From contig CM060732.1 of assembly GCA_030704615.1 (NCBI GenBank), forward strand, positions 14,818,001 to 14,882,000: a stretch of DNA of 64,000 bases, written 5' to 3'. The translations under genes and the position numbers were made by a program. Below, piece by piece: positions 4,775-31,516 of this stretch. Position 1 is the first letter of the stretch. Each line of letters begins with the position of its first letter. The notes beneath the pieces were generated by a model. That model had not been told where the DNA came from. It searched no databases and saw only the letters and a list, made by a program, of their open reading frames with translations. This DNA is from Takakia lepidozioides (Eukaryota > Plantae > Bryophyta).

Positions 4775-5539
4775 AGGTTCTAGAGACAGATTGTGGATCT
4801 TTCATGGCACACTCACACTCTAAAAATTCCATAGATTTTTAGCAGAGTCCCAAAAACAGAAACCAGGTCTAGATAGGTAGATTTCCCCTTTCTGCAGCTA
4901 TCCCCTCAAAAACTGGGTCAAACAGAGTCCATTTGACAAAGATATGACCAATTTGGCTTTACATCATTTAAATTAGATCAAAATGCCCTGTTTTTTTTTT
5001 TTTTTTTTTTTTGAAGGTTTTCAAATTTAAAAATTTAAAGTTACCCAAACTATCTGGTAACTGGTTCCCAGTTCCCTACGTTCTATATGGTTTCCTAGGT
5101 TCCCTGGCCACGTGCCCTATAATTCGCACCTTGCTCCAGTCTTCTGCATACCGAGAGTGAGAGAGAGAGAGAGAGAGGGAATTGTGGCACTCAGTAGTGT
5201 CTTGTTGTGAAAGAGAGTGGATTCCGTGATTGCTTGCAGGCTTGCGCACCAAGAGAGGGGGAGGAAAGACATGTTTATGGACATGTTTATGGACGCCATG
5301 TACAGGCGAGGGGTCACTCACAGTCTGCTCGAGGCCTTGGTGGCTAACGATAAATCACTGAGGAGGATTACCAGCGGGAAGCACTGGACTTTGTGCTGGA
5401 GCTTGCGGGTCCCCGGCCCATTCCAGTTACGGGGGAGAAAGCCCTGGCTCCTGAATCGCCCGTCTATCCCCAGCGTAGCTCGGCTCCGCCGTTCCCAAAC
5501 CCGTCGTCTCCATCCTGCAGCTGAAACTCTAGCACTTTT

Positions 5540-6320
5540 GTGAATGTGAACTGCTTACTGCAGGGAAGTGGGTATATGGGAGCATTCGAGTCCATGGATG
5601 CAACACCGCTTGATCAGGTCATCAACGATGCAATTGACTGGAGTTTCCGTAAGCAGAATCCAGAGGGCTATTGGGCGGGCCAGGTCGAATCAAGCTGTAC
5701 AATGGAAGCGGAGTGGATTCTGGCTATGCATTTCCTGGGCGTTACAGATGACCCAAAGAAAGAAAAAGTCGTGCGTTGCATTCGGAGCCTGCAAAGAACT
5801 GACGGATCCTGGGACACTTATCATGAAGCTCCTGCAGGTGACCTTAGCACCACCGTCAAGTGTTATGTGGCCTTAAAAGCGTCAGGATCCCAACCCAATG
5901 AAGCATCCATGGTAGCGGCTCGAAAATGGATTTCTGAACATGGTGGACTTCAATCTTTACGACTTTAGCTGCTGGGCAAGGGAAACAGTCGTCCCCCTGA
6001 CCATCCTTTCTGCTCGGCGCCCTGTACGTCCGCTGCCGCTCGACTTTTGTTGTCATGAGCTCCATGAACCAGAGGACATGAAACAACGTCAAAGCAAGAA
6101 AACTACTCTTTCAAATCTCGCCAGACATGTCTGTGAAAGTTTATTCCTCTACTTCGACAAGTTCCTCATATGGTATGGTAAGAGCCGTTCCAAGCCTGGC
6201 CGTGAGGTGGCCATCGTATGCTGCTTGGCCTGGATCCTCCGGCGACAAGATTCTGACGGCACTTGTTGTGGTGTACAACCTCCTTGGGTGTACTCGTTGA
6301 TGGCGTTGAGCTATATATCG
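5540..6320 (+). pseudogene. shc: Captured squalene-hopene cyclase N-terminal fragment
   Basis: QNPEGYW, MEAEWILAMHFLG, QRTDGSW, GDLSTTVKCYVALK, WARETVVPL and QDSDG..GVQPPWVYSLMAL. Internal deletion/frameshift near 5960; stops before the DXDD catalytic motif. Confidence 0.88.
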
Positions 6321-6971
6321 CCTGCTTACTGTAGGGAATCAGGCCAGAGTACGTTCGTCGTTCGTTTCTGCTGAATTGGTCAGAAGACAATTCCAAGCCC
6401 GGAACCTAGGGCGCATACAATGCAGCAACCCCAAGAACGGAAAGCGCAAAGTTCTGCTATTGGCGAGGCTCCATAGCAACCATATACACGGAACTCCGTC
6501 CTCTGCGCATTGCGAAGAGGATGCCGCTTTTCTGCTCCATAGCCCTACCCCTTAACCCGCTGCATGGCGCTCTTGCATGATCAAAACAAATGATTGACAA
6601 AGAAGCTGAAGCTAAATTTTGGTCCAAGACCAACCCCGATACAAGAATCAATTGCAACAGCAGGCTCCTCTATAAGCTTACTGGTGAAACGATCATCCAG
6701 CTTCAAGGATCATGCATAGGTGCCAACTAGCATTTGCTGCTGCATTTTTAAGTATCTCCTTGTGTACCCCAAAGCCTCTAGTGACTTGGTAGCTTCAGCG
6801 ACTGCAATAACAATGGCGGCTCTGGCATCGTCATCCTCCAGGCGTTTCAGGGCACGCTGAATCTAATGATATGCTTCTCAAACTAATCACTACTTATACG
6901 CAGGTAATCTTGCAAGTGCTAACCCTCAACTCCTACCTTGCACTCACAGGTAAGAGAGCATCTTTCTCGAG

Positions 6972-7469: not shown

Positions 7470-8540
<1,071 letters not shown>

Positions 8541-11674: not shown

Positions 11675-12366
11675 TCATGAGTAAGAAGATAGATAACTTA
11701 GAACACCACACAAAGCCAGATCTGAATCATGATATTTTAGGAAAAAAGAAAGGAGGAGCATATGTGCATACCTTTGAGTAATGAAAGAAGAGAGGTGAGG
11801 GAGAAACGAAGGTTGGGGAAGCCTTCCCTCCTTCAGAAAGGCAATGGAAATCCGTAGAAGAGAATCCCTTCGGAAGCCATTGGCTTCAAGAATACGAATG
11901 AGATCAAAGATCTCTAGGAAGGCGGCACTCACTGAACTTGACAAGTAGAGCAATGGAAAGATTTGTGAAATGATGGTGTTGTAAGACTGCTTCACGGGTC
12001 TGTTAGACCTCAACATGATGGACTGAGTATATGAGAACGGGATGAGTCTTCTCTTATCATACTTTTGAGCTATAAAAAACCCAAGAGTATGATCAGTCAC
12101 TTCTATTTCCATGTTCATAAAATGGGCTTTGACCCCTCTCGTAGGATCACTAGGGGAGTAAGAAACCACTTCAGGTTTGATCTCCACAAACTGTAAGGGA
12201 TAAATCCAGAAGGGATTATCCTTATTGCGGATAGCATTTGGGTTTAAGAATAGCATAACATCGCCAACATTAAGCCAACAAATATCATCAATGTATCTTG
12301 ATGCATGACGGAACCTTGCTATGAAATCAGCATGGCCAAGTGAGGCTAACCGATTTATGAAATTGA
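11675..12366 (-). pseudogene. PLE reverse transcriptase, C-terminal part
   Basis: RYIDDICWLN, AHFMNMEI and KYDKRR (RT palm/thumb). Confidence 0.82.
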
Positions 12367-12886
12367 TGTCGTGCGCATACGTATCGCTACACAACTACAT
12401 CGCTGTCCAAACCACACCACACATATATGCACAATAAAGTAGTCTGCCACAATAGATTGAAAACTAAACTCACACTGTTGACACAAGGACATGAAATACA
12501 ACACCATCACTCGTTAAACTAAGAGTCAAGCCAGGGGCACCCCAAGCTATGGGGACTCCACCCCACAACATCCTATTCTCCCTTCATAAGCACATTCAGA
12601 TTCTAAGCAGTGAATGAGCTTGGTCGTGCAGGCTCAACTCAAGAGAGATGAGCCGCATGACGAGCTCGTGAAGATAAGATGGTTCAGGTGTCAAGCTAAA
12701 CTTGACACCTGACTTAACACTTGAACTAATTCCAAGTGTTAAATACAGATAACTAGATTTATTCTAGTTAGTTTCACACTGTGTTTATTTAACTTGACAG
12801 CTGTTGTGCGCATACGTATCGCTACACAACTACATCGCTGTCCAAACCACACCACACATATATGCACAATAAAGTAGTCTGCCACA
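12367..12886 (-). repeat. 3' terminal Y-X-Y block of B: Y2 12367-12451, X2 12454-12799, Y1 12802-12886
   Basis: Two 85-bp Y copies (1 mismatch) flank a 346-bp X that matches 23748-24097. Confidence 0.93.
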
Positions 12887-12900
12887 ATCGCCCCCCTAGC
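12887..12900 (-). promoter_or_regulatory. Polypurine tract of B
   Basis: Element strand GCTAGGGGGGCGAT directly before TGTGGC; identical motif in C at 59622-59635. Confidence 0.8.
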
Positions 12901-13149
12901 TGGTGGTTAGGTCCCTGTAACGTCAGATAGCTACAAGATGTAATAGCCACAACCGTACTAAGTCCTCTATCACTGTCCCTATTGTACTCAAACTCTATAG
13001 ACCAAGAGGCCGGGTAAAAGAGTAGCCCCATCGTTGGTCGCCGTCTTGCAATCTGTGAACTTGAGCCAGGATCTCGTGTGTTCAAGGTCTCATAGTAGCT
13101 TGGCCTTGCATTTCTTGTTAGCATTCCATGGTTGTATCCACTCCCACTA

Positions 13150-15358
13150 TCCAATGCAATGTGGACATAACCAATCCCCATCAGGAACCATCTCAAGAGG
13201 TGGAGTCAAGCATCCCATATGCCAACCTCTAGAGCATTGATCATACCACCAGCATGGTGGCTGCCCCTCTAGCAGACCCACACAACATGCACCTCAAACT
13301 TGCAGGTACCATTGCCAGGTTTGGGTCAACCCTTCCATCAACATTTGGAAGGTGACATGGCGCACAATTACGCACATGGTCCTTCCAAATCATGCCATCC
13401 CGACCCTCCAAGATCAGAACTCTTGAGGGCAACACCTCTCGAACCCTCAAAATAATACGTCCTGCAGTCACATCCAAGGTCGTAGGAGCAGTCTGCTGCA
13501 AATAAACATAGTCACCAGGGTTAAATCTCCAAACCCCAGGACGATAGCCCCCACCACGTATGGTAGCATACCTCAACGTATCACGATGTTGTGCAATGGC
13601 AAGGTTCTCAAAAGCCATAGGCATGACTTTCTTAAACAACTCTGCACGCTGATCACATGCACGTGCCCACACGTCCGGATCATCAAGGTTAAGAACTGTA
13701 GCAGCTTCTCTACGAATGGATGTAGGCAAATCCGGCTCTCGGCCAAAGAGAAGAAAATATGGTGAGAAGGAGGCAAGTGATGCTTGCTTGCTGAACCTGT
13801 AGCCCATGGCTAACCAGGGTAACTGAAGGTCCCAATCTCCTAGGTGTCCCTTCTGCAAGCCATACTTGCGCAAACCCCTCTTTACTGTCTGAACAACCCT
13901 ATCTGCCAAGCCATCGGCCTCAGGATGATCCCGAGAAGTGGTGCGGTGGTCTACCAAGGCCTTGTCACACAAAGCCTAAAACTCCCCCAATAACTCTCTC
14001 CCTTGGTCCGTGAGTACCTCAGCTGGAGCACCGAATCGGCTAAGTACACAATCCAAGAATGCATACGCAGCTTCCTCACTAGCCTTATCAGGCAATGGAA
14101 CCAACTCGATCCACTTGGAGAAGTATTCCACCATCACCAACACGTACTTGTTGTGGCGCATGGTTAGTGGCAATGGCCCTGCGAAGTCAAGACTCCACCT
14201 GTAGCCCAATTCCATGATCGGAAGAGGGTGCAATTGTGGAGTAGGGGCGTTGAATGAAGCACGCACCCTGTCACACACCATGCACCTAGCCACAAATTGT
14301 TGCACCTCTGTGTGCATACCACCCCACCAATACTGCCCCTGCAGTAGACTATGAGTGCGTCGCACCCCAAAATGCCCCAACTCCTCATGGGCATGCCGCA
14401 CTAACCGTGCCCGCTGTGTTGGGTGAGGCACAATCCTCACTCGACCATCCTTCCACTCTCGGAGCAGGTGTGTCCCCTCCCACTTGAACCTCTTGGCTTG
14501 TTGTAGGATCCGATCCCTTTCCTTGGCAGTCACAGTGGCTGCCGTGTCTCCACTGCGGAGGTAGTCCAACACAGCTGAATCCTCATGTATATCTTTGGCG
14601 CCACCTTGCTCATTGCTAGCCTCAGGGTCCTCAGACACTTGATCTACCGTCATCTCTGTTGCAGGTCCAACCTGGCATTCCGCTGCCAAGATACACAGAA
14701 ATGCAGATGCATGCCATCCGGGCACCATCTCCTCGTCCGTCTCACCATGCCACCGAGCTCCAGTGTCATCTTGCTGGCTCGTGCATGGATTGCGACTCAA
14801 CCCATCTGCATCTCGATTGACCAAACTTGGTCGATGCACAACCTGAAAGTCATACTCTTGAAGGATGAGTGCCCACCGTGCAAGCTTCCCCGTAAGCTTG
14901 TCTGACTCCATCAACAACTTGAGTGGTTGGTGATCCGTGACAAGGGTGAAGAGATTGCCGTATAGATAGCACCTGAAGTGTGCCACGGCCCACACTGCAG
15001 CTAAGCATTTTCCTTCATATGAGCTATACTTAGACTCTGCAGCGTTGATCAAGCGGCTAGCATAAGCCACTACGAACTCTCTTCCCTCATCATCCACCTG
15101 TGTGAGCACCGCTCCAAGCCCCAACATGCTCCAATCTGTATGCAGCTGAAAAGGACGCCCCCTGATAGGTCGTCTCAAGATGGGCGCCGAGGTCAACCTC
15201 GCCTTGAGCTCTTGAAAAGCTTGTTCTTGCTTATCTTCCCACTGCCACTCCTGGTCCACCTTGGTCAGTTTGGTTAGAGCCTTTACAATGGCACTAAATC
15301 CCTTAACAAACCGTCTATAATAGTTAGCTAACCCCATGAAAGCTCGAACTCGGCTCAC
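13150..15358 (-). pseudogene. RNase H, integrase (HHCC + DDE) and C-terminal PHD finger of B
   Basis: LHTDWS, VTDHQPL, HAHEELGHFG..CMVC, WSLDFAGPLP, LTDQG, HPEADGLAD and CMLCG...; premature stops near 13976 and 13241. Confidence 0.93.
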
Positions 15359-16155
15359 ATCCGTGGGCGTGGAATCTGTGCAATGGACTCTACCTTAGTC
15401 TGCTGTACCCCCAATCCTCCAGGATATATCATGTGACCCAGATACTCAATTTGGTTGTGAAAAAACTTGCACTTCCCCGGATGTAACTTCAATCCGTGCG
15501 CCCTCAAGCGCTCAAATATCACCTGAAGGTGTCTCTCATGCTCCTCCACCGTAGCACTAAAGATGATGATGTCATCTATGTAGCACCGAGCAAACTCCAC
15601 CCCTGCTAGAATCCTGTCCATGACTCTCTGAAACTCTGCCGGAGCGTTCTTAAGCCCAAATGGTATGAACCGCCACTAGTATAGGCAATCCTTCCCGTGC
15701 TCATTGATCCCCCAGAATGTCGTCTTCTGCTTATCCGCCTCCTTGATCAGCAACTGGTGATATCTGGATCGTAAATCCAAAGTGCTAAAGACCTTGGAAT
15801 GCCCAATGGCATCAAAGATCTCCTCTGGTGTCGGCATGGCATACCTATCGGACTTGGTCTGACGATTTACAGGCCGGTAATCACCGCACATACGTCTCTC
15901 CGTCCAATTGCCATAGACATCCTTCTTGGCTGGCATCACTGTGGTTGAAGCATACTCTCCCCCAGATAGCTCCACCAAACCAGCCTCCCAAAGGTCCTGA
16001 GTTCTCATCTGAATCAAGGACCTCTCCATGTCACTATATCTATAGGGTCTCCGAAAGATTGGCGTGTCAGTAGTCAATTCAATGCGAATCTCTTGACCCT
16101 TCAGTGCTCCTAAGTCCTTCAAACTAAAGGTAAAGCAGTTCTTGTAAGCCCTCAA
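15355..16155 (-). pseudogene. Gypsy-type reverse transcriptase of B
   Basis: RMCGDYRPVN, FSTLDLRSRYHQ, MPFGLKNAPAEFQ and CYIDDII; in-frame stop at 15676. Confidence 0.95.
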
Positions 16156-16372
16156 GAACCGCCGTATACGTCGTCTTTCTCCTCCAGTGACTATAGGTCC
16201 AACATCAGGCTCCCAGTTGTCCTCCGTGACTGCAACCTTGAGTCCAGCAGGCTTAGAGGTAGAAGACGCGTCTCGTGGTTGCTATGCTGCAACCTCTTGA
16301 GCAGTGACCACTGCCTCCTCTGTCAGTGACAATGTCTCATCCTGCCCTATCATCCCATCCTTGAGGACCTCC

Positions 16373-17827
16373 TCAACCAGAGAAAAAATCCCCAACCTCA
16401 TCCATCACGGCCGCCTTGGCTGCCAACTCCTTTTGAACCTCGAGCACCTCCCACGTGTGCCATGGATGCGGCCTGCACCTCGTGGTCCTCACCTGTTTGC
16501 CCCCACTCGCTGCCTGTACCGTCTCGGTAGGCAGGGAGACCATCAAGGGAAGTGTACTCCGTCCTCGGTGCTGCTCAGCCATAGCCAAGCTGATAATCCA
16601 GGTCAAGCAATTGAGATCCATTGCTTGCCCCAACACCTGACGACGTGATGCCTCAAAAAGAGATGGCACCGCCGTGGTACCAGTGGTAAAACCCATCGCC
16701 CGCTCGCGCTCGTCAGCATTGGGCTCCACTAATTGGTGCAACTGGCTATCCCACAAGAGGCCAGGTCCACCATCCCGAAAAGCATGGGATCCTGGAAAAC
16801 TGAGCAGTGTAGGCAATGTGGCTCGTGGGTGACCCACCTTATTGACCACTGCCAAAGGTGATCGGTCATCGTGTCTCACACGCTGAGACTGTCTCCATCG
16901 CTGAGACTGTCTCCCTATGTCCAAAATGCTATCCACCGTCAGGTGTGGTGGCCTCTGCACCCCATCAAATGCACGCTTGAGCAGTGCAGGTGGCATCAAG
17001 TTGGTCCACCATAGTCGTGGGCGATGAGCCCGTGACCCCACTGCAGCTACATCCAGCAACACTGCTAACCCAAGCCAAGACCGCACTTGATGCACACTGG
17101 CCATCACCTTGGCCCGAGAATCACCCATCAATGGCAGATTCTCCAAGATATATGCTAGAGAGTCTGTCTGCTGAAGTTGTAAATAGCGTAGGACCCTCAA
17201 CATTTCCCAAAACAGGCGTGACCTTGAGTTGTGTAACCTATTGCCATGCCCGGCTGATGAATGCCCTTGGCAGGGCCAACCTGCCACTACCAAGTGAATA
17301 GGGTCAACCCGCTCCAAACCATGCGCCCCCAGCAAAGAGATGTCTGCTGGCAATGCTTGTTGGTATCCACGAACTGCAGACACTGGCAACAAATCAGGGT
17401 ACTGCTGCACCAATTGAACAACATGGCGCAGTGAGACGCGTCGAGCAGTCTCATCCCTCTCCACATATAGGTAACGTTGAACTCGTACACCTGCCTGCAG
17501 CACTGCAGCCAATCTAGTGCTGATCCCGCCAAACAAGTCCAGAAGGCATTTGCCTTCATCCGGGCACTGCCACACAAGAGGTGTGGTGTCCAATGGCGAC
17601 AACTGAGGTGAACCTAGTGCAATCACCGCACTCTCCTCCTCTCCTGACGGTACGAAGGCCTCTACCCAGGCTTGTTGCACCTGTCTATCAGCAGCCTGCT
17701 GCAAATCCTTGCTCGTACCCCACAATGGAGTGTGAGCAACCATGGCAAGCAACTCCGCCGTACCATGCATGTCATCCTGCTCTGCTGGAGGTGGCACATC
17801 CTCTACATGGCCATTGCCCTCCAGCAA
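16373..17827 (-). CDS. DNMT3-like C5 cytosine methyltransferase domain within pol of B
   Basis: Motif I LDLFGGI, II YVERD, IV AGWPCQG, VI ILENL, VIII AHRPRLWWTNL, IX ERERAMGF and X LGQAMD, in canonical order in one open frame. Confidence 0.93.
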   Translation of the reverse strand: MLEGNGHVEDVPPPAEQDDMHGTAELLAMVAHTPLWGTSKDLQQAADRQVQQAWVEAFVPSGEEESAVIALGSPQLSPLDTTPLVWQCPDEGKCLLDLFGGISTRLAAVLQAGVRVQRYLYVERDETARRVSLRHVVQLVQQYPDLLPVSAVRGYQQALPADISLLGAHGLERVDPIHLVVAGWPCQGHSSAGHGNRLHNSRSRLFWEMLRVLRYLQLQQTDSLAYILENLPLMGDSRAKVMASVHQVRSWLGLAVLLDVAAVGSRAHRPRLWWTNLMPPALLKRAFDGVQRPPHLTVDSILDIGRQSQRWRQSQRVRHDDRSPLAVVNKVGHPRATLPTLLSFPGSHAFRDGGPGLLWDSQLHQLVEPNADERERAMGFTTGTTAVPSLFEASRRQVLGQAMDLNCLTWIISLAMAEQHRGRSTLPLMVSLPTETVQAASGGKQVRTTRCRPHPWHTWEVLEVQKELAAKAAVMDEVGDFFSG

Positions 17828-17949
17828 CTCCAGGCCAACTAACTGCAGCTGTGAAGGCTGCTAGTGTTGGCATCTTGCTCCGTTGGGCAGCAGCAACACC
17901 CCCAATGAATGTCATAGGGAGTTGTACATGACGACCATCCCCTGATTGT

Positions 17950-18401
17950 CATCCAGGCCTGTAGGATGCTGACTCCTCCCAAAAATCCAGGGTGAAGCCC
18001 ATGGGATATAACACTGCCCCACCAACGAGGACATTGTAAGAGACCGCATCTGTCACAATGGCCTTGGCTCGCATCACTGAGCCATCTATAGGATGATCCA
18101 GCTATAGTCTAATGGCCAACTCACGCCGTGTCATGCCCCGAGCCTGCTCTGATCCTCCCAGAGATGTCTGTATCTGGAAAGGACAAGGCTCCATATCCGC
18201 CTCCATGAGGCCCAAACCTGCAATAGTAGCTCTGCCCAACATCAATGGCTGAGCTCCCGAGTCCAACAAGACCCGCAGTGGCCGGTACCTCTTGCCTGCC
18301 GGTCCACTCAAAGATAAAATGCCATCCTGGTTGTCTAACAAGACAATTCCAGGTGTCACCATGGCGCGTTCAAAGGCTGGCCTAGCTGGCAGCTCCGTCA
18401 A
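17950..18401 (-). pseudogene. Aspartic protease of B
   Basis: RVLLDSGAQP; premature stop at 18102. Confidence 0.88.
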
Positions 18402-18416
18402 CCTGGCAGCTACAGC

Positions 18417-20322
18417 TTACCATGGCGCAGCCGTGGCAGTCTTGACCCTCAAATCCAAGGATCCCTCTGCCACTACACCCTCCACTAACTCCGCAGAAGA
18501 TGAAGTGACCTCCCCACTCTCGCAAAGTGTTGCTGCTAGTCTGAACACTGCAGCTGGTCTTACCCCCGGCGTCGCGATCATGGTTGCCGAGAACAGTGGG
18601 GCCTGATACACAGAGGTGGCTGCCCCCAACAACACACTGGCTGCACTAGCCTTGGCAGCAAGTGTCAGTGCTGCACGTGTAGCTCTCCCCAATGGCACAA
18701 TAACGGCCTCTGTATCTGTCGGGCGAGAACTAGGTGCCATGGATGTCGTCAACACTGTCTCCCCCAAGATGAATGATTGAGGCAACCTAGCCTGACGGCT
18801 TGCATCCCCACGCTGTGGATCTAACCCCACCTCTGCACCTCGTGGCTCAGGAACTCTTGCTGCTCCTCGAGTGACGGCTGCAGTAGACTCCACCTGCACT
18901 AGTGGTAGTGCTGCCCCACACATAAATCCCATGCCTCCCATGTCTCCTCCGTCAGGATGACGCTGCTGAGGAGGAACAGGAGGTGGACCCTCACGTCTTG
19001 GAGCTGGTACCACCTGAGCTGTGGCCATGCCAGCAAGCCTTTGCTCTAGTTGCTGAAGTCGGTTGGCCATGCCTTGGTCAACTCCCTGACCTCCACGTCC
19101 TTGGCCATACTGTGCTTGCCCTCATCCTACACCTCGTGCCTGACCACCTCGTCCTCTCTGAGGTGCTCCAGCTTGCTCTCGGCCACCATTGTTCCCTTGG
19201 AACCGGCCTTGCCGCAACTCAGGGTGCAAGTCATAACACTGGGCATCTCCATGCCCATACTTGCCACAATGCCCACACAGCAACTATGCAGGCTGTGCTT
19301 GTGCCGGCCTTTTGCCACTCTCTGGGCAATCTTTCTTGACATGGGGTCCTCCACATGTCCAACATATCACCCCTGGTTGTTTGGCTTGCAAAAGATGCTA
19401 CTGGCCTCTGCACCTGAGGTCCCATATAAGCTCCATGGAATTTGGGTTGGGAAACCTTGCCCCCCTGACCACGCTGTTGGGCAGTCCCTTGTGCCTGTTG
19501 GCTGGCAGCTGCGCCTCGTGCAGGCATGTCCTTGCCAAATCCAATGGTAGCAACTCGCTCCTCCACCATGTTGAGCTCAATCCGCTCAGCCAGCAGAACA
19601 CATCTGCTAATGTGGGTTGGGCTGCTTGTAACAGGGTTGCATCCCGCACCCTTCTCCTTAGCTCCTTATCCAAAATTCCATACCAGAACTGGATTGCTTG
19701 AGCTTCAGTAACCCCTAGGGTCACACTTATCAAGCGCCTCATACGAGTGTAGGCATCTCGCAAGCTCTCACTGGATTTGCGCTGGAAGTCTTACAAACTT
19801 TGCAGCTTCTCTGTCCGTACACCTTGGTAGTTCCTTCGCAACTCCTGGAAGAACTCCACCACCAGGTTGAATCTAGGCACATGTGCTGTAGTCGTGGCAG
19901 GAGGAGTAGTAGCACCTTTTGAACTGGTACCATCTGCAGAAGTACCGACACCACTTGTTCCACTACTAGTGCTGGCAGTGGGAGATATCTGCTACTGGTC
20001 GCGTTGTGCCTCGAGTAATGGAGACGTAGTCAGGTGACCAATACATCCTCCACTCCTCAATCTCTGCTTCATGTCCTCGCCTGAACTCGTGGTAATCGTC
20101 CATAGGCGGGCCTTCCAAATGCTGGAACAGTCCCTTCCACGCCATGAATGGGGTGAACAGTTGTGGATTGCGCATCTGCTGCAAATCACACCAGCTGTCG
20201 AACTCCTGGATAAAGTCATCCAGCTCGATTGTGCCCACAGCTCCAGAGTACCTACGAGGCCCCTTGGTAGCTCCATACATCTCCTCCATGTCATCCCACA
20301 ACAATGGCGAATGAAACTGCAC
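18417..20322 (-). pseudogene. Gag of B, multiply frameshifted
   Basis: Fragments 19966-20322, 19398-19763 and 18417-19070 are homologous to A gag. Confidence 0.88.
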
Positions 20323-21023
20323 ACATGTTGATGAAGCCTCCGAGTCTGTGTCTGACTCTGCACTAGTTGAGGGTAGAGGTGAAGGTGGTCGAAACGAACA
20401 CCTTGTCTGGTGAACCCACTCTCACTGCTACTGCCTGTAGCCGTACTCCCCTCAAAACCCTTGGGTAACTCTGTGATGACACTCACAACCCGCACCTCCC
20501 CCACGTGACACTATAAGGCTCTAGTACTAATTCTAATAGTGACACGGGTGAGCACCTGTTGCGGATTAAGGGTCATATCCCAGTGGCTAAGGGCCCTTGC
20601 ACCTGCATCCACCGCAAGAACTCCTATGGTTGGTTGGTCATCAACCCAGTCTCACCATAGAAGAAACACTGGTGGTCTTGCTGGTCATCACTCCAGCCTC
20701 ACCACCGACAGCATACTCTAGGATTGACCGGTGATCAAATCTGGCCTATCCCTATGAAAGCAAGCGCCCACACAAAATCAACATGGCGCACAGTCAAGCA
20801 TGCAGGTGTTGGGGGGGATCCAAACACAAGAAATCAAAACATCAACACCCCCACACCAAAATCCAGCTGCAATGCTGATCCTGCAGAATATCCCAGCCCA
20901 AAACCCCGGACTGACTGGCCTCCACCAAGAGAGGCTTTGGCAACTACGAGTACAAGATAATGAAAATAGTACAGAGATGGAGGGGAAGAATAGAAGTTCG
21001 CCCAAGCAAGATCTAATCCTGAT

Positions 21024-21773
21024 CTATGCTATCAACTTCCAGACTTCTCTCCAAGTGCCTCGCTCTGCGTGATGGTAAGGTGTAGGAGGTATATCTATGT
21101 CCAGAAACCTGCCACTAACCTTGTCCCAAGCTACAGTAGCTCGCTCTAACCAACCCTCCCCCTCTTTCTGCCAGGTAGAGACAAAGCAATACTCCCCTAT
21201 CTCCCGCTCACTGAACACTAAAGAAAATAAAGGTAGGGTCTGACAGTCTCTCAACTTGAAAGCTTTGAGACGGTTGCGGGTGTCCTCATTGCGAATGATT
21301 GCATCTCCTTCAAGCAAAACAAACTTTTCATTGCTAATGAAGCCCCGCTCGTGGTTGCCTCGTGTAGAGCGTGTCCGGCTGCAACCATGTCTGATTGCAA
21401 AAACTTGTGTAGCTCCTGCTCGTCTGCTCCAGTACACCACGGCCTTGTGGCTGAACACCTTGGTCCCCGGGGCTGTCTTTGGCTGTGTTCCAAGCCTAGC
21501 TTCCACCCACTTTGGTATTTCACCTACAGCTGCAGAACTGCTTGCTCCAACAGAGTTCTGACTGTCCAAAGCAATATTGAGGCCCTCAACGCCAACTACA
21601 GCAGTTTGTTGTCTATTGTTAATGTCTGACTCCCAGTATGCAATCAACTCGTCCAACTGCTCTCCACTCAAATCAGTCTGAGCCCCTTGAGAAACATAAA
21701 TCTTGTCCCCTTGTGTGCACAGGCTAAGAGAAGAGACCTGCCCTTCAATTACGTCCTCATTTCCCCCAGCCAT
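21024..21773 (-). CDS. Extra ORF upstream of gag in copy B
   Basis: Homolog of 3983-4774. Confidence 0.7.
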   Translation of the reverse strand: MAGGNEDVIEGQVSSLSLCTQGDKIYVSQGAQTDLSGEQLDELIAYWESDINNRQQTAVVGVEGLNIALDSQNSVGASSSAAVGEIPKWVEARLGTQPKTAPGTKVFSHKAVVYWSRRAGATQVFAIRHGCSRTRSTRGNHERGFISNEKFVLLEGDAIIRNEDTRNRLKAFKLRDCQTLPLFSLVFSEREIGEYCFVSTWQKEGEGWLERATVAWDKVSGRFLDIDIPPTPYHHAERGTWREVWKLIA

Positions 21774-22083
21774 ACAAGGAGGACATCCACAGATTTGTCT
21801 CTCATGTGAACCACAACAGGTTCTAGAAACAGAATTGTGGATCTTTCATAGCACACTCACACTCACACTCAAAAAATCCATAGATTTTTAGCAGAGTCCA
21901 AAAAAAACTAAAACCAGGTCTAGATAGGTAGATTTCCCCTTTCTGCAACTATCCCCCCAAAAACTGAGTCAAACGAAGTCCATTTGACAAAGTTATGGCC
22001 AATTAGGCTCTAAATCATTTAAATTAGATCAAAAGGGTTTTTTTTTTTTTTTTTTTTTTTAATTCAAATTTAAAAATTCAAAT

Positions 22084-22200
22084 GAAGGTGAAAAGTTCTT
22101 TGGAAACTTCCCCTATCCTTACATGAATGGACTTCTCCACCTGGGTCATGCTTTCTCTCTGTGTAAGGTGGGGTTTGCATCTGCTTATCAGCGTCTGAGA
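22084..22200 (+). pseudogene. Captured cytosolic leucyl-tRNA synthetase fragment (HIGH motif region)
   Basis: Manual translation [39 protein letters not shown]. Confidence 0.85.
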
Positions 22201-22941
22201 GAGCGGCAAGAAGCAGGGTAGGAGAAGCAGCAAGTCGCAGCGGCGGTGGCTGGAAGGAACGGTGCACTCCGTGCGCTAGCCAAGCGAGTGTGTGATGCAC
22301 AGCAGGTGCTCGAGGCGAGTGTGGAGGAGATGTCGGAGTTCAAGCGCGGCCGGCTTGTCAGCAGCTTGGATATATAGGAGCTGGTCTCATATGCACACAA
22401 AATCAGCTATACTACATTTGCCCCACCTGAATTTGCGTCAGGTTTAGTCCCGATGCGAAGTGCCTTGCCTCCTGCCCCCCAGGATGAGCAAATGCATGCC
22501 TCCATGCTGTATCAAGCCGATGGCCTGGATTTGGGTCTTCCCAAATTGGTAGCTCCTGTACCCTCCCCGCTTGTACCCACTGAAGATGCGGTAGTTGTGA
22601 AGGTGGAAGGGTCTGTCACAGCACTGGAACCTGTGGTGCCTGCGGGATGGCAGCCTGGGATGCCTGTTCAGCTGCTGTCAGAGCTACCGCCAATGCCAAC
22701 AGGTTGGAAGATTGGTGATCCCATTCCATTACCCCCGGGTTTGGATATGCTCCCTTTGCCTCCAGGGTGGAAGGCTGGGGATGCTGCTCCAGTTTTTGCA
22801 GGCTTGCGGCCCAAAGCTCCCGCTGCCCCCGCCCCTGCACCAGGAGTCATTCACGTGTCATTTGTCCAGCTCGACCTCAATCTTGAGCTGGAAGATGACT
22901 TTGGCAGTGACGAAAGCAATTCAGAAGAAGATGATGAGTGA
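22201..22941 (+). pseudogene. MED4: Captured Mediator subunit 4 C-terminal region, intronless
   Basis: YAHKISYTTFAPPEF..ALPPAPQDEQMHASMLY..DLGLPK, PAGWQPGMPVQL and an acidic tail; two in-frame TAG stops. Confidence 0.85.
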
Positions 22942-23139
22942 TTTGCGTTTTTCTACTGCTGCATATCAAATGTTACTCGAGAAGGCAGGAGCTGAATCCT
23001 AGCACCACCCTGCCCATTCTAGCCTGTACATCCTCGTCAGCAGCTATCTTGGCATCTGCGCTTGTTGCTACCTACGGTGCTTCTCCGTTATCAAGCCATG
23101 GCTTGTTCACAGTCCCGCTCAATCCATTGCTCGATTAAT

Positions 23140-23445
23140 GCGGCTGCTGCTTCTGAGCCTTGTTGACCTGTATGTATGAAATGACGAGCGTGTTGACAGC
23201 AAGACCCTTCACCTCAACATTGCTCTTTGTTTTCTTCAACAATCCAAGCAAGAAAGTAGCATACTTCACAGGCCATCGTCCCTGTCCATTAGAATGTCGC
23301 AACTTCGCTTGAGCTGTGCGACGAACACCGCCACAGAAACGGCGGAAATGAATCGTTTGTTTGTAGGCGAGCACATCTTCCAAGTACCGCTTGGCCTTCG
23401 CAAGCTCAAAGTGCTTGATTGCTTGTGCTGCTTCTCTGGTGTTCT
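23140..23445 (-). pseudogene. RPL17: Captured 60S ribosomal protein L17 (uL22) internal fragment, intronless
   Basis: [54 protein letters not shown]. Confidence 0.9.
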
Positions 23446-23747
23446 AATGCATTGCAGCTGCGGCTGACGAGTTGGCAGATCACATGAACAAAAATGCCAG
23501 AGCCTGCACAATGAAGAAAGTTGAACAAAGTCCGCACTGGAACTCTACTGTTGATGATGCGCTTGACATCTTTCTAACTAAAGATTACCTGAACACAAAT
23601 AATCACTTCTCTGTCTCCAACCAGCTTGTCACAAACATGATCTACAAACCACCATAATTTTCTTCTCTCACTTTCAAAACAAAAACCACAAGTGCTAAAA
23701 CTAAACTCACCTCTGGCACTCACAGATGCAAGCTCATCTCTCTCGAG

Positions 23748-24097
23748 TGATTGAAAACTAAACTCACACTGTTGACACAAGGACATGAAATACAACACCA
23801 TCACTTGTTAAACTAAGAGTCGAGCCGGGGGCACCCCAAGCTATGGGGACTCCACCCCACAACATCCTATTCTCCCTTCATAAGCACACTCAGATTCTAA
23901 GCACTGAAGGAGCTCGGTCGTGCAGGCTCAACTCGAGAGAGATGAGCCGCACGACTGACGAGCTCGTGAAGATAAGATGGTTCAGGTGTCAAGCTAAACT
24001 TGACACCTGACTTAACACTTGAACTAATTCCAAGTGTTAAATACAAATAACTAGATTTATTCTAGTTAGTTTCACACTGTGTTTATTTAACTTGACA
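23748..24097 (-). repeat. 5' terminal repeat X1 of B (350 bp)
   Basis: Matches X2 (12454-12799); no Y repeat adjacent. Confidence 0.93.
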
Positions 24098-27000
24098 TTG
24101 AATTCATAGTAGAGAAAATACAGATTACACCAAAGGGGGGAGCACGAGAAGCCCATGTGGATACCAGTAATTTGCTTCCATACTCTATCCCCCAAGCTGA
24201 CAAAACAATGGTTCATCAACCATAGAGCAGTAAGTCGATCTTGTGTGAAACCAATCCACAAGTCAGATTTTGATTTAGGGGCACTATGTCCCCACCTTGT
24301 CTTTTCTGCTTTCATTGTACCATAATTGAAGTTGACCCACAAGTAGTGGTCAGCCCTCGTGTGGTTCCTATGGTATTGTCTAAAGGCCATTGAAATCACA
24401 TGGGATATAGCAATGCCTAAATTATCAGTCCCCTGTAAAGGGATAGCCTCGTAGCATTGAGCGATATTTGCCACAAATATATCATGAATATGGGTAGGCA
24501 GATTGAGGCTGAATTCAATAATGGAGTCTACAATCCAATACATTGAAGATTGAACTCCAAGGAAGACTGAAAATTTCTTTTCGAACCCACATATCCATTC
24601 CTTCACAAGGGGCAAGAGAGCCATAGTGGCAACTAAAAGAAGTTGTGCCACAGTTGAGAAAATACAGTTGTGGGCATTCGTAAGCCATCTATACTTTTTT
24701 CTTATGCTCTTTCTAGATTGCCATGAGATAGGGTAGAGACATAGCCGCAATAGGGAGTTTGGGGATAATACCTTCAAGCTCACTATTGATGTTAGCACAA
24801 ATGTCTCTAGTGATTATCCAAGAACCCTCAACCATACATGGTTTGAAGTCCTTACATTGTAGCCGGTGGAAGGCTTGTACCCCAATGTGCTTAATACACT
24901 AGAAACAAACGTTGTTGTTTGCTTTGTCCACCCCGGAAATATAAAGATGACTTAGGATCCAATTTAGTTCATCTACCACATTTGGGCAGTTTAGCACTAT
25001 TGGTCCAGAGACTTTGAGGCCACGGGCATTTTTCCCTGCGGCTTTTTTAAGTATCTCCCAACAATAGTCGGTGAGCCACATATGTGCAGCTCCCAACCAT
25101 TCACATGAACTCAGGTTTAGCAAAGTACAGACCTGGTCCCAAGCAAGTTGGACTGAAGTGACAACCTCATGCAAGTACGAAGGACGCATGGGAATGTGAT
25201 TCAGCCCACAAGCAAACAAATGTCTCAGTTGTGTATGTCTTATGATATTGACATCCATAGACCTTACATGTGCGAATGCTTCTGAATTCACAGCATGGAA
25301 TTCATCCCTAGTCAAAGGATCAACAAAAGCTTGCAATCGCTTAGACTTGAAACAACCACATGTATTCAAAGGGTCGAAAAGCTCAACAAAAGTGAACTCC
25401 CTGAATACATCACTTGGTTTATAGATTGATCTACCAAAATGGTTATGATATTTCCAACCAAAGAGAATATCATTGACCAGTAGAGCCAATTCATGTTGCT
25501 CAAAAAAACCAAAAGTGGCTGAGATTACCTCTTTAACACAAATCCATTCCATTGTACGATTAGGATATAACACATGAACATATCCAATCTTCTTCTCTTT
25601 TACTGGAGGTAAAAGGTAGAGACGTCCTAGTATATCAGATGTAAGTCTCATGTCACACATCTCTGGAAACAGGAAGACATTCCGAAAAAGACTATTAAGT
25701 TGACATCGTATCTCCAGATCAGTACTTCAAAGAATCACCACCGTAAGACACGTGCTTTGAGTGGAGACCTACTAACAGACCCCTGACTACTAGAAGGTAT
25801 ACGATCAGAACCAATGTCAATTGTAGTCTCAGAGGAAGATGGAGACCATCCATCTTGCACCCTAGGAATAGTAGGTGCTACAGTAGAGTTACGACCAGCG
25901 CCAACATGTCCACGGCCACGTGAGTAAGTGCGGCCAGAATGACGTCCTCCTGCTCTGGCCCTCCCACCAAACTGACCTCCTCTCGGGATGAGCGGAGGAG
26001 TGTTGCTGAAGGAGGTTCGTTGTTTCTTGTAGTAAGGAACTGAGCCAGGAATTGGCGAATTGAGGGAAAAACTCGGTGGTTTGATCAGCCTCTCAATCGT
26101 TCGTACCCCCGACTTCTCTCCATGCTTGGCCAAGAGCTTGCTAGATGGCGCAGACACAAACTCAGTCGCAGCCTCTTTCATCAAATCTCTAGTACACATA
26201 AAGGTGATGTGTGCCAAGACCGTTGTCTTTGCAGAACCAGCCAACCAAATACAAAAAGCAGTAAATTTGGTTTTGAGAGACGGAAATTCAAAAGGATAGA
26301 ACTCCACCAGATTGTTGACCATGTACCAAACAACTTGGTCAAACCACAGTAGACTACCCGTGCACCCACCTTCTTTTGAGTTCGCCGAACTGCAAGGGCA
26401 TCTCAAAAAGGGCCTATGCCGATTCCACCATGCTGTTCGGTGGTTATCATCACGACGAGCACCAGTATTCATGTTGCCCTTAGTGCGGACATGAATGCGT
26501 GTGCTCATCGCACATCTTGGGATCGTAAGCAGAAATTGGAAAGGCACTGGGGATTTCCACAATAGCCTTTAGAAACTGAAATCCATCAGCTGCTTTGGCC
26601 TTACAATCATCCACTTCAGCCTGTGAGATGTTGGCCCATGTCATCCACAGTGCCAAGAGCTGCAGGTTAAAAAGTGTCCACATACGGTGACATTTCTCAG
26701 TAACCATCAATTCTACCGCCCTTGGAGAAGTGAGGGGAGCCACTGGTTCCTTTCCCCCACTACTAATCAGATTGTTCCTTGACAGCTCAATTTGTGAGCT
26801 CTGAATCCCTTCCACATACTCTTCCAATGTGGCTCGATCCACATCTGGGATCGCCATCTTGGCCAAGAGAGGGTGCACTCGTGGTTTATCATTGAAGTCA
26901 AAAGCAGAGTTAGCACTGATGTTGGCTGTGACAGGAGTATCCGTATTGCTGGAATTAGCACGTTCGATGGCACAGTCAATGTCCTTCATCAACTTTTCAA

Positions 27001-27334
27001 TTTCACATTGGTCATCATAGTCTTGTTGGAGCAAGTCCCCTAGCTTAGAGTGTACATCACATAGAGTTTTCAGAGCATGGGGCCGGTCTGAGAAACATAT
27101 CATCATGAGTCGCGTCCATTCTCCCAAACCAAGAGTCTCAAGGAGTAAGGGTTCATGCACACCTTCCTCATTGATGTCATTCAACGATGCCTTGTCCTTC
27201 TCTTGAACAAAGGCATGGAATGGAGGAAAGTCGACAGCAGCCAAACTGGCCTGCACACCAAGGATAGGAGGTGGGAGAGGAGCCCCATAGCCAAGTGCCA
27301 ACAAATCATTGTGCCAAGCAAGGCTATTTTGCAT
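24098..27334 (-). pseudogene. PLE ORF, N-terminal part and RT fingers (fragments 26480-27334, 25735-26562, 24899-25660, 24098-24798)
   Basis: Naiad-like pre-RT motifs (WKYHNHFGRSIY, CGC, HVRSMDVNII..LRHL..GLNHIP). The upstream ~550 aa is unassigned. Confidence 0.72.
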
Positions 27335-27451
27335 CTACACATAAGTAAATATACCATGTTAGAAGCAAAAAGGAAAAAGACAGAATGGAGTAAGAAACTG
27401 TTTGATGGTGTATTCAACGACCAAGAAGAATACTGGATAAAGGAGAGAGAG

Positions 27452-29044
27452 TGTTACATAGCATGTCAAAGCTAGACAAGGAAACACTAAGCACATTGTG
27501 CTGTGTTTGCCTTCATTTAACGACATCAGACAGCCTAATTTAGGCACCATCAAACTGTCTCTACCCAGATCTGCCTCCATACCTCCCTTTACATTATACC
27601 CTTGCTGGAAAACCAGGTTTAAGGTCTACTAAGTGGCAATCACATGCACACTAGGTAGGGCCTTCTCATAAACAAATCTACCTCCTCACTTTCATATCAT
27701 AGGAAACAACAGTAGAAGTAGGAAGAGCACAACTGTCTCCTTACAAGTAACTCCTTTCATGTAGGTACCAGCTCATAGATCCATCAAATCAATAGAGCAA
27801 AAACAGCAGTAGTATGTGGACAATCAACATGTACAAACATATTTGAGGTTTGAGAGAGCTCAAAGCCTCACTCCCTTAGTCTCTTGCCCTTAGTAGCATT
27901 TCCTGCAACAAAAGAAGGTGAAGTGGCATCACCTGGATCCATCACAGCCAACCAACCAAGCAACAGGTTAGTGATCCCTGTGGAGCGCCAGGCTTAAACC
28001 TCTTCACATTTGTTATCAATGTCATCCCTGTAACAAGTCATACTAGCAAAGAGAGGAGAGGTAAGAGAGGTCCTTTCAGCCATTCAACATAGGTACAAAA
28101 CTCAGTAACACCTATTTCAGCCCATGCTCCAGAGGGAGGGGGGGTGGTCTCATGTCTGTAAGCACCCATTCCCAAAAGGAAGGTGTCACTAGAGCCAAGT
28201 ATCCAGCAAGGGGACACATAGAGGCCTTTGGTTTGCAAAAGTATTCAAAGAATCATAGTAGAGCTAATCATGTCCATGTAAGTAAACATGACAACAAGCA
28301 TCTATCCCCAAAAGGAAGACCAAGTACTCAAGCAAGGGCATATATAGAAGCCCTTGGTTTTGGAAAAGTATTCATAGATTCAGAGTAGAGCTTAGTCAAG
28401 TCCATGTAAGTTCCTCATAGTGTCAACTCTCTTTATGTTGCCATCCTAAGCAGCCCATCACAGTGTTGGAGGAGTCTGAATGGATACCTTGCTTGTAGAC
28501 ATAGTGTAGTCAGCTCCTTTAGCTCTTGCCTGCTCCTCTTCCAAATGAGAAGAATGGCCAAGCATACTAACCATATAGGGCAGCAGCTTTAGGTTGAGAC
28601 CTCTAGGATGAACCCTAATGAGTCACCCTCATGAGTCATCCTAGTGAGTCATCCCGTTCTACAATCCCCCGTTCCGTTCTAGACAAAAAATCTGAACGGA
28701 ATAACGGGATCAGACAATTCTTGAATGCTGTCTAAAAAGATCTTAGCAACATTGAGGAGAGAAAGAGACAAAAAAAAATTCCTCGAGCCTCTCATTTTCA
28801 AGTTTCCTAATGCTGGTACAAGGCATTGGCTACAGTAGAGCAGCCAAGAGAGTAATGTACATTGACCGGATCATGTAGAAGGTGTACACATATACTCTAT
28901 TATGCTGTTGCTACAGGGCCTAGCACAAGATATCATGTATTAGTTTGCCATCCAATGTCCCTATATGTTCAAGGCTGGAGAAAGAGTCAAAGGGATCAGG
29001 CAGTTCTTGAGTGTTGTTACAAAGAACATACCCACATTCAAGTA
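27452..29044. repeat. 1.6-kb direct repeat, copy 2 (5' pseudo-LTR)
   Basis: Near-identical to 9841-11421. Confidence 0.9.
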
Positions 29045-29070
29045 GAGAGAGAGAAAGAGAGAGAGAAAGA

Positions 29071-30969
29071 GTACTCATAAGACGTTGTTTGCCGTAGCCT
29101 TGTGGCCATTGACCCCGCGCCCAGTTTGAGCGGAAACAAAAGGGACAGAACCTACCTCTGACAGGGGCTGACGTTGGTAGTAAGACTTACCTTCATATAT
29201 AGAATTAATCCGGGTTTTCCAGATATCCTCTAGAAATCCCTTCACACAAGCATCAATCTGCTGTGTGTGATTTGCCCAAAAACTAGGCCCTAGGAGGGCC
29301 TGGGCTTTTGGCTCAGCCTCGAGACTTTCAAAGTTGGTAAACAGAAGTACAGACACAATTCCCTTGATAGATTTGAAGAGAGCGTCTCTTTGGTGAGAGA
29401 ACCCCGGACAGCGTATCAGAAAATGAATACTGTCTTCAGGTTGCCCTCACAACGGGCACTTGCACTCTCCCTTTCCTGTCTGCTTCTGTTTGCTGTTCAA
29501 AGATAGGCTTCCTGCCCCGAGTTTAAATTTCAGTCTAGTGCCGAGAGTGGGTAGACCCTTGAGGTCATCCAAGATGCCCTCCCCCATGTCACAGACTGGA
29601 AACAAGTTCAGGGAAGTTTTCTGCCTAACTTCATTTTCATCAGACAATCTCATGGCAATAGACATGGCTTTGGACACTACAGCCTCTAAGTCAGATTTAT
29701 CTAGCAGGGTAAAGACTTGCGGTTCCAGGTCCTTGAGAATCTCTTCTACTCTCTTCTTCCAAGACTTAGCCTGTTTGACAGGGCGGTCCTGTTTCCAAGA
29801 TATAGAGTCGATTAACTTAGGATATCTGGTGTTGGACATGTGTTGCACCTGACCCCACCATCTGACCTTGAATTCATCTCGTCGAGAGCTTAAGGACGGA
29901 ATGCCAAACTCACCCCGAACAGCCACATTGGCTGTTTTGGAGCATGCTGACATACACTCCTTAAGCACCCCCACTTGAATGGATTCTAGAGACTTAGCCT
30001 GGTTGGAGTTATCAACCCATATAGCAGATCCGTACTCCAAGGCAGGTCTAATAACGCGACAAAGCATGGTTTTCTTAACCTCAGAGTTGACCCCTCTGTA
30101 GTGGAAAATTTTAGTGAACCCTAGAGCTTTGCCCTTGCCAGTTTGAACAACTTTCCCGGATATGTGCATCCCAATTACAATTGGAGGAAAACTCAACGCC
30201 CAGGCAAGTGAGAGAGAGAGATTGTACTCATAAGACGTTGTTTGCCGTAGCCTTGTGGCCATTGACCCCGCGCCCAGTTTGAGCGGGAACAAAAGGGACA
30301 GAACCTACCTCTGTCAGGGGCTGACGTTGGTAGTAAGACTTACCTCCATTTATAGAACTAATCCGGGTTTTCCAGATATCCTCTAGAAATCCCTTCACAC
30401 AAGCATCAATCTGCTGTGTGTGATTTGCCAAAAAACTAGGCCTCAGGAGGGCCTGGGCTTTTGGCTCAGCCTCGAGACTTTCAAAGTTGGTAAACAGGGG
30501 TACAGGCACAATACCCTTAATAGATTTGAAGAGATCGTCTCTTTGGTGAGAGAACCCCGGATAGTGTATCAGAAAATGAATACTGTCTTCAGATTTCCCA
30601 CACAACGGGCAATTGCACTCTCCCTTTCCTCTCTGCTTCTGTTTGCTGTTCAAAGGTAGGCTTCCTGCCCCGAGTTTAAATTTCAGTCTAGTACCGAGAG
30701 TGGGTAGACCCTTGAGGTCATCCAAGATGTCCTCCCCCCATGTCACAGACTGGAAACAAGTTCAGGGAAGTTTTCTGCCTAACTTCATTTTCACCAGACA
30801 ATCTCATGGCAACAGACATGGCTGAGTGAGAGAGAGAGATTGTACTCATAAGACGTCGTTTGCCGTAGCCTTGTGGCCATTGACCCCGCGCCCAGTTTGA
30901 GCGGGAAAAAAAGGGACAGAACCTACCTCTGTCAGGGGCTGACGTTGGTAGTAAGACTTACCTCCATAT
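29071..30969 (-). mobile_element. Three head-to-tail 5'-truncated RTE/RTEX-like LINE copies (29071-30210, 30221-30823, 30839-30969)
   Basis: Shared 3' end ...GTCTTATGAGTAC(AA)TCT; copies separated by (GA)n; ORF2 C-terminus CPLC..HFLIHC. Confidence 0.9.
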
Positions 30970-30979
30970 GAGAGAGAGA

Positions 30980-31012
<33 letters not shown>

Positions 31013-31516
31013 TCCACAAGAGGGACAAGTGATGTCTGCTGCAATTGAAGAAAGTCTTGCAATCATGATCTTCATCAGGAGAGAAGTGAGGCAAATACTA
31101 ACATAATTGAGGTGGGTTTTTACTTTCCGTCAATGAATAAATAAAAGCCCTTTCTTGGTCCTGCCAGGGACGGGGGAGACACATGAAAGTGATATCTGTA
31201 CAGCAAATGAGTTGAGAGAACTTCCGCTGCGTGGCCATCTAGCTGATAATGCCCTTGTTCCCCGGCCTTTACGTCATGAGCACTCACTGGCATCCTTGCA
31301 CAGCGTGCAGCAACACTTCTTCCTTATGCAATTGCTCACAATGCCTATGGATAATCGATGTGTTCCCCTTTGCAGGGTTTTCATGGCTAGAGTAGCTGTG
31401 GTCATCTCTCAAGAAGTTCATCGTGCAAAGCTCTCTTTAGGCAGGTTATAGATGAGCTCAATCAACTCCACAGAGGTTGCCTACGGACTACCTGAGAATT
31501 GCCTAGATGTGTTGAA

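Follow-up and report, generated by a model that had tools for sequence, protein, structure and literature searches.

The 5' leader of a Gypsy-DNMT3 retrotransposon of Takakia lepidozioides contains a variable slot at a fixed position, and both whole slots that could be read are filled with mosaics of host gene pieces. They lie in the window, by which we mean the whole stretch of 64,000 nucleotides analysed here. At a probability of about one half, we favour the reading that the cargo is RNA-derived, captured by loose template jumps of the reverse transcriptase (RT) and then amplified as a passenger of the element.

The element and the slot in its leader

The window holds one whole Gypsy-type element (B) and two partial ones (A and C), all on the minus strand. 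The order of element B is A1 - leader - gag-PR-DNMT-RT-RH-INT-PHD - PPT - B1 - A2 - B2. The features of the element and of the slot are:

12367..24097, minus: element B, a decayed Gypsy-DNMT3 copy of full length, bounded by TGTC...GACA and flanked by a 4-bp TSD (24098-24101 and 12363-12366)
23749..24097, minus: A1, 5' repeat of element B, 97.4% identity to A2
23932..23948, minus: predicted self-primer segment in A1 of B, perfect complement of the PBS-position 17-mer
23732..23748, minus: PBS-position 17-mer of B, directly after A1, putative Tf1-like self-priming site
22083..23688, no strand: cargo slot B, 1606 nt, GC 0.51
22038..22082, minus: conserved 3' border of slot B, a 22-nt AT-rich motif and then A23 in element sense
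21024..21845, minus: extra 273-aa frame upstream of gag in B, open in A and B, no family
13150..20289, minus: gag, protease, C5 DNMT (16556-17563), RT, RNase H, integrase and PHD, with stops and frameshifts
12367..12900, minus: 3' end of B (PPT 12889-12900, B1 12802-12888, A2 12455-12799, B2 12367-12453)
6959-6972, minus: PBS-position segment of copy A (14 nt), with complement 7153-7166 and A1 at 6974-7319
5040..6912, no strand: cargo slot A, 1873 nt
4991..5039, minus: conserved AT-rich motif and A22 tract of copy A

Pfam matches in the element (PF00145, RT_RNaseH, rve and Integrase_H2C2) place a C5 DNMT within a Gypsy polyprotein of PR-RT-RH-INT order. P0195 and P0136 were used as tblastn queries, and the first, a Klebsormidium protein, aligns along element B. 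The A-coding-B-A-B repeat layout is present in element B and likewise in the metagenome loci L055, L073, L074 and L078; 4-bp TSDs were seen in L055, L073 and L074. Among named proteins the DNMT domain is closest to those of Marchantia (72%), whereas Sphagnum (46%) and Klebsormidium (43%) rank lower. The lineage is broad, giving 737 matches at E<=1e-10 in a representative search, which yielded nothing about the slot. By its sequence the element fits the KnitGypsy-Dnmt3 type, the Dnmt3 label being taken from similarity to the Klebsormidium protein (43%).

An extra frame of 272-273 aa lies between the A-tract and gag in both copies (3983-4801 in A and 21024-21845 in B, minus strand), and over 259 codons the two versions differ by 17 synonymous and 33 non-synonymous changes. 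The frame has no match in 80 metagenome loci and no family in Pfam, PDB or Atlas. Viral contigs scanned with this frame, RPL17 and the DNMT gave nothing useful, and L081 is a 14-residue chance match.

The flanks of element B rejoin to a single open RT-like frame (11678-12366 and 24102-27334, minus strand, in frame when rejoined), which by its YIDD motif we take to be Penelope-like. Element C has the same B1-A2-B2 arrangement at its 3' end as element B. It is a more distant relative (58352-64000, minus strand, about 80% in pol), in which a deletion of about 630 nt removes most of RT and A2 is split by an insertion of about 650 nt with inverted ends and a direct repeat of about 10 nt. Elsewhere in the window, a histone H3 gene with introns, seen by eye at about 7480-8450 on the minus strand, stops some 160 nt short of where element A has its 5' end. 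The segment 9832-11450 is duplicated at 27443-29071 (96%). At least five LINE-like copies, all truncated and tailed by (GA)n, are stacked at 29057-37400 on the minus strand; they resemble each other at 94-98% and adjoin DEAH-helicase and ankyrin pieces (37000-40400). An uninterrupted 228-aa frame at 48485-49168 (minus strand) carries a dual-specificity phosphatase domain (Pfam E 3e-12).

By self-BLAST, copies A and B are colinear on both sides of a single interval: 1-5039 matches 17039-22082 at 91.6% over 5073 columns, and 6913-7319 matches 23689-24097 at 84%. Within the interval, slot A against slot B gave one 19-nt chance match with blastn (word 7, E 0.03) and zero matches with tblastx. The original prediction had described the copies as colinear around unrelated contents, with slots of similar size (1.6-1.9 kb) next to a shared poly(A/T) tract, and all of this is borne out. 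The T22 (4991-5012) and T23 (22038-22060) tracts sit 22-27 nt outside the slot edge on the gag side, and slot B starts 43 nt behind the predicted self-priming site and stops 22 nt before the A23 tract. The GC content is 0.51 in the slots compared with 0.37 in the adjoining constant leader. Element B keeps gag through PHD; the cargo lies in the leader and replaces no part of an ORF. Rfam gave no match over 4800-24200, a bacterial promoter scan was uninformative, and counts of ATG and AATAAA showed no clear difference between the strands.

The pairing between A1 and the PBS position is 17 nt long in B, a length reached by 0 of 200 shuffles, and 14 nt long in copy A, with a compensatory change on both sides relative to B. 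Metagenome relatives have a different 17-mer with the same pairing and context (examples at the A1 end are L045, L050 and L055). The pairing reaches 17 nt in 3 of 20 of them, at least 10 nt in 12 and at most 8 nt in 8, and in two of the 12 loci with at least 10 nt the best partner is a second site. The centroid fold contains the A1-PBS pairing; the MFE fold prefers a local hairpin instead (z -4.2). The covarying pairing is the signature of Tf1-like self-priming and points to such priming in the Gypsy-DNMT3 lineage; in plants such priming has been predicted for Tcn1 and TAR, according to the available portion of PMC6317226.

There were 80 metagenome relatives (DNMT 44-66%), in 34 of which the gag start could be located and in 23 of which, one being the reference, the whole leader is present. 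All 23 whole leaders are of a constant 1.1-kb type (81-97% to the reference), and one 165-bp insert is common to three of them and one cut locus. This insert, at leader position ~911, marks a metagenome subfamily (L043, L052, L057 and L059). Judged from these leaders, the slot belongs to the present family and not to the whole lineage. A variable slot at a fixed position of the leader is supported, both mosaics recurring in other DNA, and the constant leader of the related metagenome family weakens the original interpretation. Self-priming alone does not cause capture, because that family has the same PBS pairing and no slot.

Cargo of the two slots and its host donors

The pieces of slot B, and below them those of slot A, are:

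23452..23688, no strand: unassigned piece y, with a stop-free 69-aa frame on the plus strand, common to more family copies than the core
23140..23451, minus: RPL17/uL22 mRNA piece, codons ~25-129, element sense, uninterrupted, 6% off the host transcript
23008..23139, no strand: unassigned piece x, between the MED4 and RPL17 transcript edges
22200..23007, plus: 3' part of the MED4 coding sequence, running through its stop codon into ~65 nt of 3' UTR, antisense relative to the element, interrupted by two premature stops and 2.6% off the host transcript
22084..22201, plus: N-terminal piece of cytoplasmic LeuRS (HIGH-motif region), antisense to the element
5127..5445, plus: gene 1, from a host transcript without a name, comprising a GA-rich 5' region and an ATG frame, probably antisense to the element
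5463..6312, plus: squalene-hopene cyclase (SHC) 5' UTR and N-terminal CDS, antisense to the element
6313..6349, no strand: gene 3, third host transcript piece, 37 nt, joined bluntly to SHC
6350-6360: 11-nt filler (local duplication), followed by a multi-copy piece at 6361-6419

In slot B the LeuRS piece is recognised from its encoded protein (E 3e-11). The MED4 piece is 62-65% identical to proteins of the Sphagnum cluster over 236-252 aa; by cluster it is 68-69% identical to the two at the top, one of them with a Sphagnum protein, 50-59% to liverworts and 43% to Physcomitrium, values that suggest a bryophyte host, probably a moss of early divergence. The RPL17/uL22 piece corresponds to residues 28-127 (E 7e-41), and a 3-nt deletion at its start creates a stop; prokaryote genomes scanned with RPL17 gave nothing useful. 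Pieces x and y have no family, and y is without a match in Pfam, Atlas and PDB. A functional LeuRS-MED4 fusion protein was considered and rejected, as the two are in frame but stops follow within 6 codons.

In slot A the SHC N-domain gave matches at E 8e-38 and 8e-28. The piece lacks 110 nt of its mRNA at 5949-5951 (3-nt overlap), a frameshifting deletion. A splice acceptor in its 5' part was rejected, the site being inside a transcript contig. The SHC is of bacterial type: 12 of 298 candidates matched, the best at 54-63%, all three that name an organism are bacterial, and none of the 298 gave a plant match. A contig with the SHC transcript alleles is nevertheless present at single-copy depth in the DNA runs, and the donor is therefore probably a horizontally acquired and expressed host gene. 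A more divergent SHC copy is carried by an 11.5-kb DNA contig (86% over 154 nt). Gene 1 and the distal pieces of A have no family in Pfam, PDB (one chance match, E 0.9) or Atlas (first match 0.88, below the usable range).

The cargo was compared with contigs of sequencing runs, four over 20800-24400 and four over 5030-6930. X6 and X7 come from two studies and are RNA by guess, X1 and X2 are DNA from one sample, and X5 is DNA from another study. Contigs of X6 and X7 match MED4 (22200-23007), RPL17 (~23140-23451), gene 1 (5127-5445), SHC (~5463-6312) and gene 3 (6313-6349), that is five of six pieces at 94-97%, and run on as host sequence past the piece edges; for gene 1, contigs of both runs depart from the window at 5127 and 5445. 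Among the contigs listed, the divergence from the transcripts is 21/806 for MED4, 14/233 for RPL17, 41/826 for SHC, 8/225 for gene 1 and 2/37 for gene 3. Host-gene DNA contigs are absent over most of RPL17 and SHC, where a filter may remove them. X6 and X7 also leave the A repeat and the flank uncovered, a gap to which we give no weight.

About 2.4 of the 3.5 kb of slot sequence can be assigned to six genes, none with an intron, and the rest is unassigned or multi-copy. The contents named in the original prediction were right for both slots: LeuRS and MED4 (plus strand) and RPL17 (minus strand) in B, and SHC plus others in A, the others being two unnamed transcripts and filler. LeuRS, MED4, SHC and probably gene 1 run against the sense of the element, whereas RPL17 runs with it. 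Four of the five oriented pieces are thus antisense, which does not differ significantly from 50:50 (binomial p about 0.19). The MED4, RPL17 and SHC pieces are broken by stops, a frameshifting deletion and indels, and the cargo is without protein-level constraint.

In X1 and X2, single-copy contigs have a depth of 53-62 compared with 660-1150 for A-mosaic contigs. The latter differ from the window at 9 of 1402 nt (0.6%), compared with 5% from the SHC mRNA, which argues that capture preceded amplification. The A-type mosaic, at about 12 times single-copy depth and 0.6% divergence, speaks for secondary retroposition of the chimera, as measured by contig depth. The data suggest about 12 near-identical sisters for the A-mosaic core, with a maximum near 20 at 5127-5445, although depth is not a copy number. 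At the edges of slot A the summed depth rises to 6,000-17,000, and at 5116, 5125 and 6664 contigs turn off into different sequence. In element B the summed depth is 160-690 in the core, about 1400 in the LeuRS piece, about 2750 at 23644 and 140,000-550,000 in the element body and A repeat.

An RPL17 sister with a 15-nt deletion is found in X1 and X5, and a 157-nt contig of X5 spans the junction between x and RPL17 with zero mismatches. At several sites the runs carry only the non-window allele; they hold sisters, therefore, and not necessarily these exact copies. Over 5030-6930 the differences from sister contigs are strand-skewed, with A>G at 18 places against T>C at 3 in X1, equivalent to C-to-T on the element sense strand. 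The cargo is thus subfamily-specific, amplified after capture and nested, the outer pieces being more widely common than the inner ones. Of the position-specific capture cassette that had been proposed, the fixed slot and the expressed host donors stand, while each subfamily passes on and multiplies a cargo of its own, which is not refilled per copy.

Origin of the cargo

Intron loss, which the original prediction had named as a check, has indirect support from RPL17. This piece is continuous over 100 codons and includes a GAG|GT position (23213), the presumed site of a conserved plant intron. One X7 transcript contig skips a GT...AG 42-mer beginning exactly there, a joint which fits a host-gene splice donor at 23213 and could also be a slip on a 4-nt repeat. 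The X5 DNA contig crosses 23213 without an intron and with the 15-nt deletion, which is missing from the mRNA. L17 is absent from the accessible part of PMC3412847, and the one part at hand of the ribosomal-protein supplement of PMC1386722 is without intron marks in its text.

That the pieces are intronless, as originally claimed, is true of the sequence, but it weighs little for MED4, as DNA contigs of host-like sequence, where present, run colinear with the mRNA. The bacterial-type SHC may be intronless by origin, so neither MED4 nor SHC is a test of RNA origin.

Microhomology was scored at 4 of about 12 junctions. It is 0 nt between SHC and gene 3, 3 nt at the SHC deletion, possibly 4 nt between gene 1 and SHC and about 2 nt between LeuRS and MED4, the last value being taken from the protein consensus. 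Junction extras comprise the 11-nt filler and insertions of 9 and 12 nt. The range of 0-4 nt lies below the 6-bp median of microsimilarity at switch points in Tan 2016 (PMC5131818, seen in part), where the cargo replaces ORFs. LTR template switching is known to yield chimeras of several genes, bases added de novo at junctions and secondary amplification, as far as the same text extends (PMC5131818). When the minus strand simply switches onto an mRNA, the resulting piece is sense and has about 6 nt of microsimilarity (Tan 2016, same excerpt of PMC5131818). Transduced sequences are usually sense according to one review (PMC7264820, in extract), and Sirevirus and Pack-MULE captures show no orientation bias in the consulted sections of 10.1101/777037; antisense capture is therefore unusual but not new. 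The proposed switching of RT onto co-packaged mRNAs is in keeping with the host-transcript donors and less so with four of five pieces being antisense and with junctions of 0-4 nt plus filler. The antisense majority is not predicted by simple minus-strand switching, and a plus-strand jump is what we infer. Capture by a poly(A) tail at the A-tract was rejected, since 22 conserved nt separate the tract, which is hence not a junction, from the cargo, and the neighbouring piece is antisense N-terminal LeuRS.

In the favoured reading the element would prime itself, and minus-strand synthesis would end in the stretch from the PBS to the A-tract. Once the second strand transfer had taken place, plus-strand synthesis would restart there, and the A-tract would act as a pause site. 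A minus-strand jump onto a co-packaged mRNA would give a sense piece (RPL17), and a plus-strand jump, or a jump onto a cDNA in the same particle, an antisense piece (LeuRS, MED4, SHC and gene 1). The leader would tolerate 1.6-1.9 kb without loss of gag-pol, so that mechanism and survival may both favour this position. Later rounds would swap parts of the mosaic, leaving outer pieces in many copies and inner ones in few. Any pairing of antisense pieces with the mRNAs of their donors would be incidental.

The alternative that survives best, and which we regard as possible although rather unlikely, is filler capture at the DNA level. Breaks in chromosomal copies would be closed, through end-joining or synthesis-dependent repair, by stretches of genomic DNA or free cDNA that may face either way. 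Only copies hit in the leader, which is dispensable, would remain mobile and multiply, the fixed position being a survival filter. The antisense majority, the homology of 0-4 nt and the non-genic or multi-copy pieces in the mix (6361-6419) would be natural products of such repair, and the 11-nt filler with its local duplication and the 9- and 12-nt insertions suit end-joining equally well. The Sirevirus and Pack-MULE captures without orientation bias (10.1101/777037, consulted sections) also favour it. Yet roughly two thirds of the slot consists of exon sequence, in which no intron was seen, and RPL17 is probably spliced. Further, outside the slots the 3.4-kb leader and the non-coding part at the 3' side are colinear or carry no cargo, and the slots replace each other entirely, with no accumulation.

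We doubt that the cargo is a selected decoy or hostage cassette, in which antisense pieces would persist since housekeeping donors would be silenced along with the element, or since dsRNA would reshape the small-RNA response, possibly assisted by the element's own DNMT3. Housekeeping donors are indeed among the cargo (LeuRS, RPL17 and MED4), but sampling of abundant mRNA already predicts them. Both copies carry cargo of similar size and the mosaics persisted through amplification, yet donor turnover is complete, pieces go down to 37 nt, and the related DNMT3-bearing metagenome family is without cargo. Chimeric contigs bridge cargo junctions in both runs labelled RNA by guess, and maize shows cross-talk siRNAs with a small transposon advantage (10.1101/777037, as excerpted); the antisense share of four in five, with the p value given above, does not argue for selection. 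It is equally improbable that a dedicated refillable cassette behind the self-priming site, loaded with antisense host mRNA by plus-strand jumps, would be selected as a rotating hostage or guide array deterring or redirecting silencing in a DNMT3-encoding land-plant retrotransposon.

A nested Pack-type or Helitron element that brought the fragments into the leader is highly improbable: mixed-orientation multi-gene mosaics are typical of Pack-MULEs and Helitrons (10.1101/777037, sections at hand), but a search for TIRs and TSDs within 40 nt of the slot edges gave only direct or inverted chance matches of 6-7 nt, as the original prediction of no nested element would have it, slots A and B share no internal termini, and no Helitron-type end was seen at the cargo edges by eye.

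Significance and comparison with known systems

Should the slot be family-wide, it would offer many independent, datable captures at one position in one abundant element, and direct tests of the acquisition of antisense gene pieces by LTR elements. It would also permit a test of whether gene fragments shield a transposon from silencing (the epigenetic-conflict model) in a lineage with its own methyltransferase. If the cargo is neutral, the slot is a tidy additional case of a known process. Cargo of this sort also inflates gene-copy and pseudogene counts in bryophyte annotations. In the full-text literature, which leaves most subscription papers and bryophyte genome supplements outside its scope, we found no description of a fixed leader slot with subfamily-wise turnover or of cargo in Gypsy-DNMT3 elements.

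The nearest relative of the element by type is KnitGypsy-Dnmt3 of Klebsormidium nitens, described with DIRS-like repeats and Gypsy domains (de Mendoza et al. 2018, PMC5890265, seen in excerpt). The two share Gypsy domains, a DNMT in the polyprotein and DIRS-like A-coding-B-A-B repeats. They differ in the host, here a land plant, with the closest named DNMT domains in Marchantia (72%), and the excerpt of PMC5890265 mentions no cargo slot, extra upstream frame or self-priming.

Tf1/sushi, Tcn1 and TAR elements (Neumann et al. 2019, PMC6317226, available portion) likewise lack a tRNA-type PBS, and their PBS position can pair with part of the 5' repeat. The present element differs from them in being non-chromodomain, in its PHD and DNMT, in its split repeats and in a pairing of 14-17 nt, and its priming is a prediction.

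Gene capture by LTR elements is already known from Bs1 and others (PMC13317346, partial text). The chimeras of Tan 2016 (PMC5131818) and maize Bs1 (PMC13317346), as given in the same excerpts, resemble the present ones in that partial mRNA pieces of several genes are fused in an LTR element, with de novo junction bases and further transposition. There the cargo replaces part of an ORF and the median homology is 6 bp, whereas here gag-pol is whole, the borders in the leader are fixed, the pieces are mostly antisense with 0-4 nt of homology, and turnover between subfamilies is complete. Maize Sireviruses, Pack-MULEs and Helitrons (Muyle et al., 10.1101/777037, sections consulted) carry exon fragments of several donors per element, in Sireviruses in either orientation, with possible siRNA cross-talk. 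Of the Sireviruses 3% carry fragments and 15% of those carry at least two, and those sections do not mention a fixed slot, whereas both copies readable here carry at least three donors at one position. The slot is an unusually organised form of gene capture of the Bs1 and Sirevirus type.
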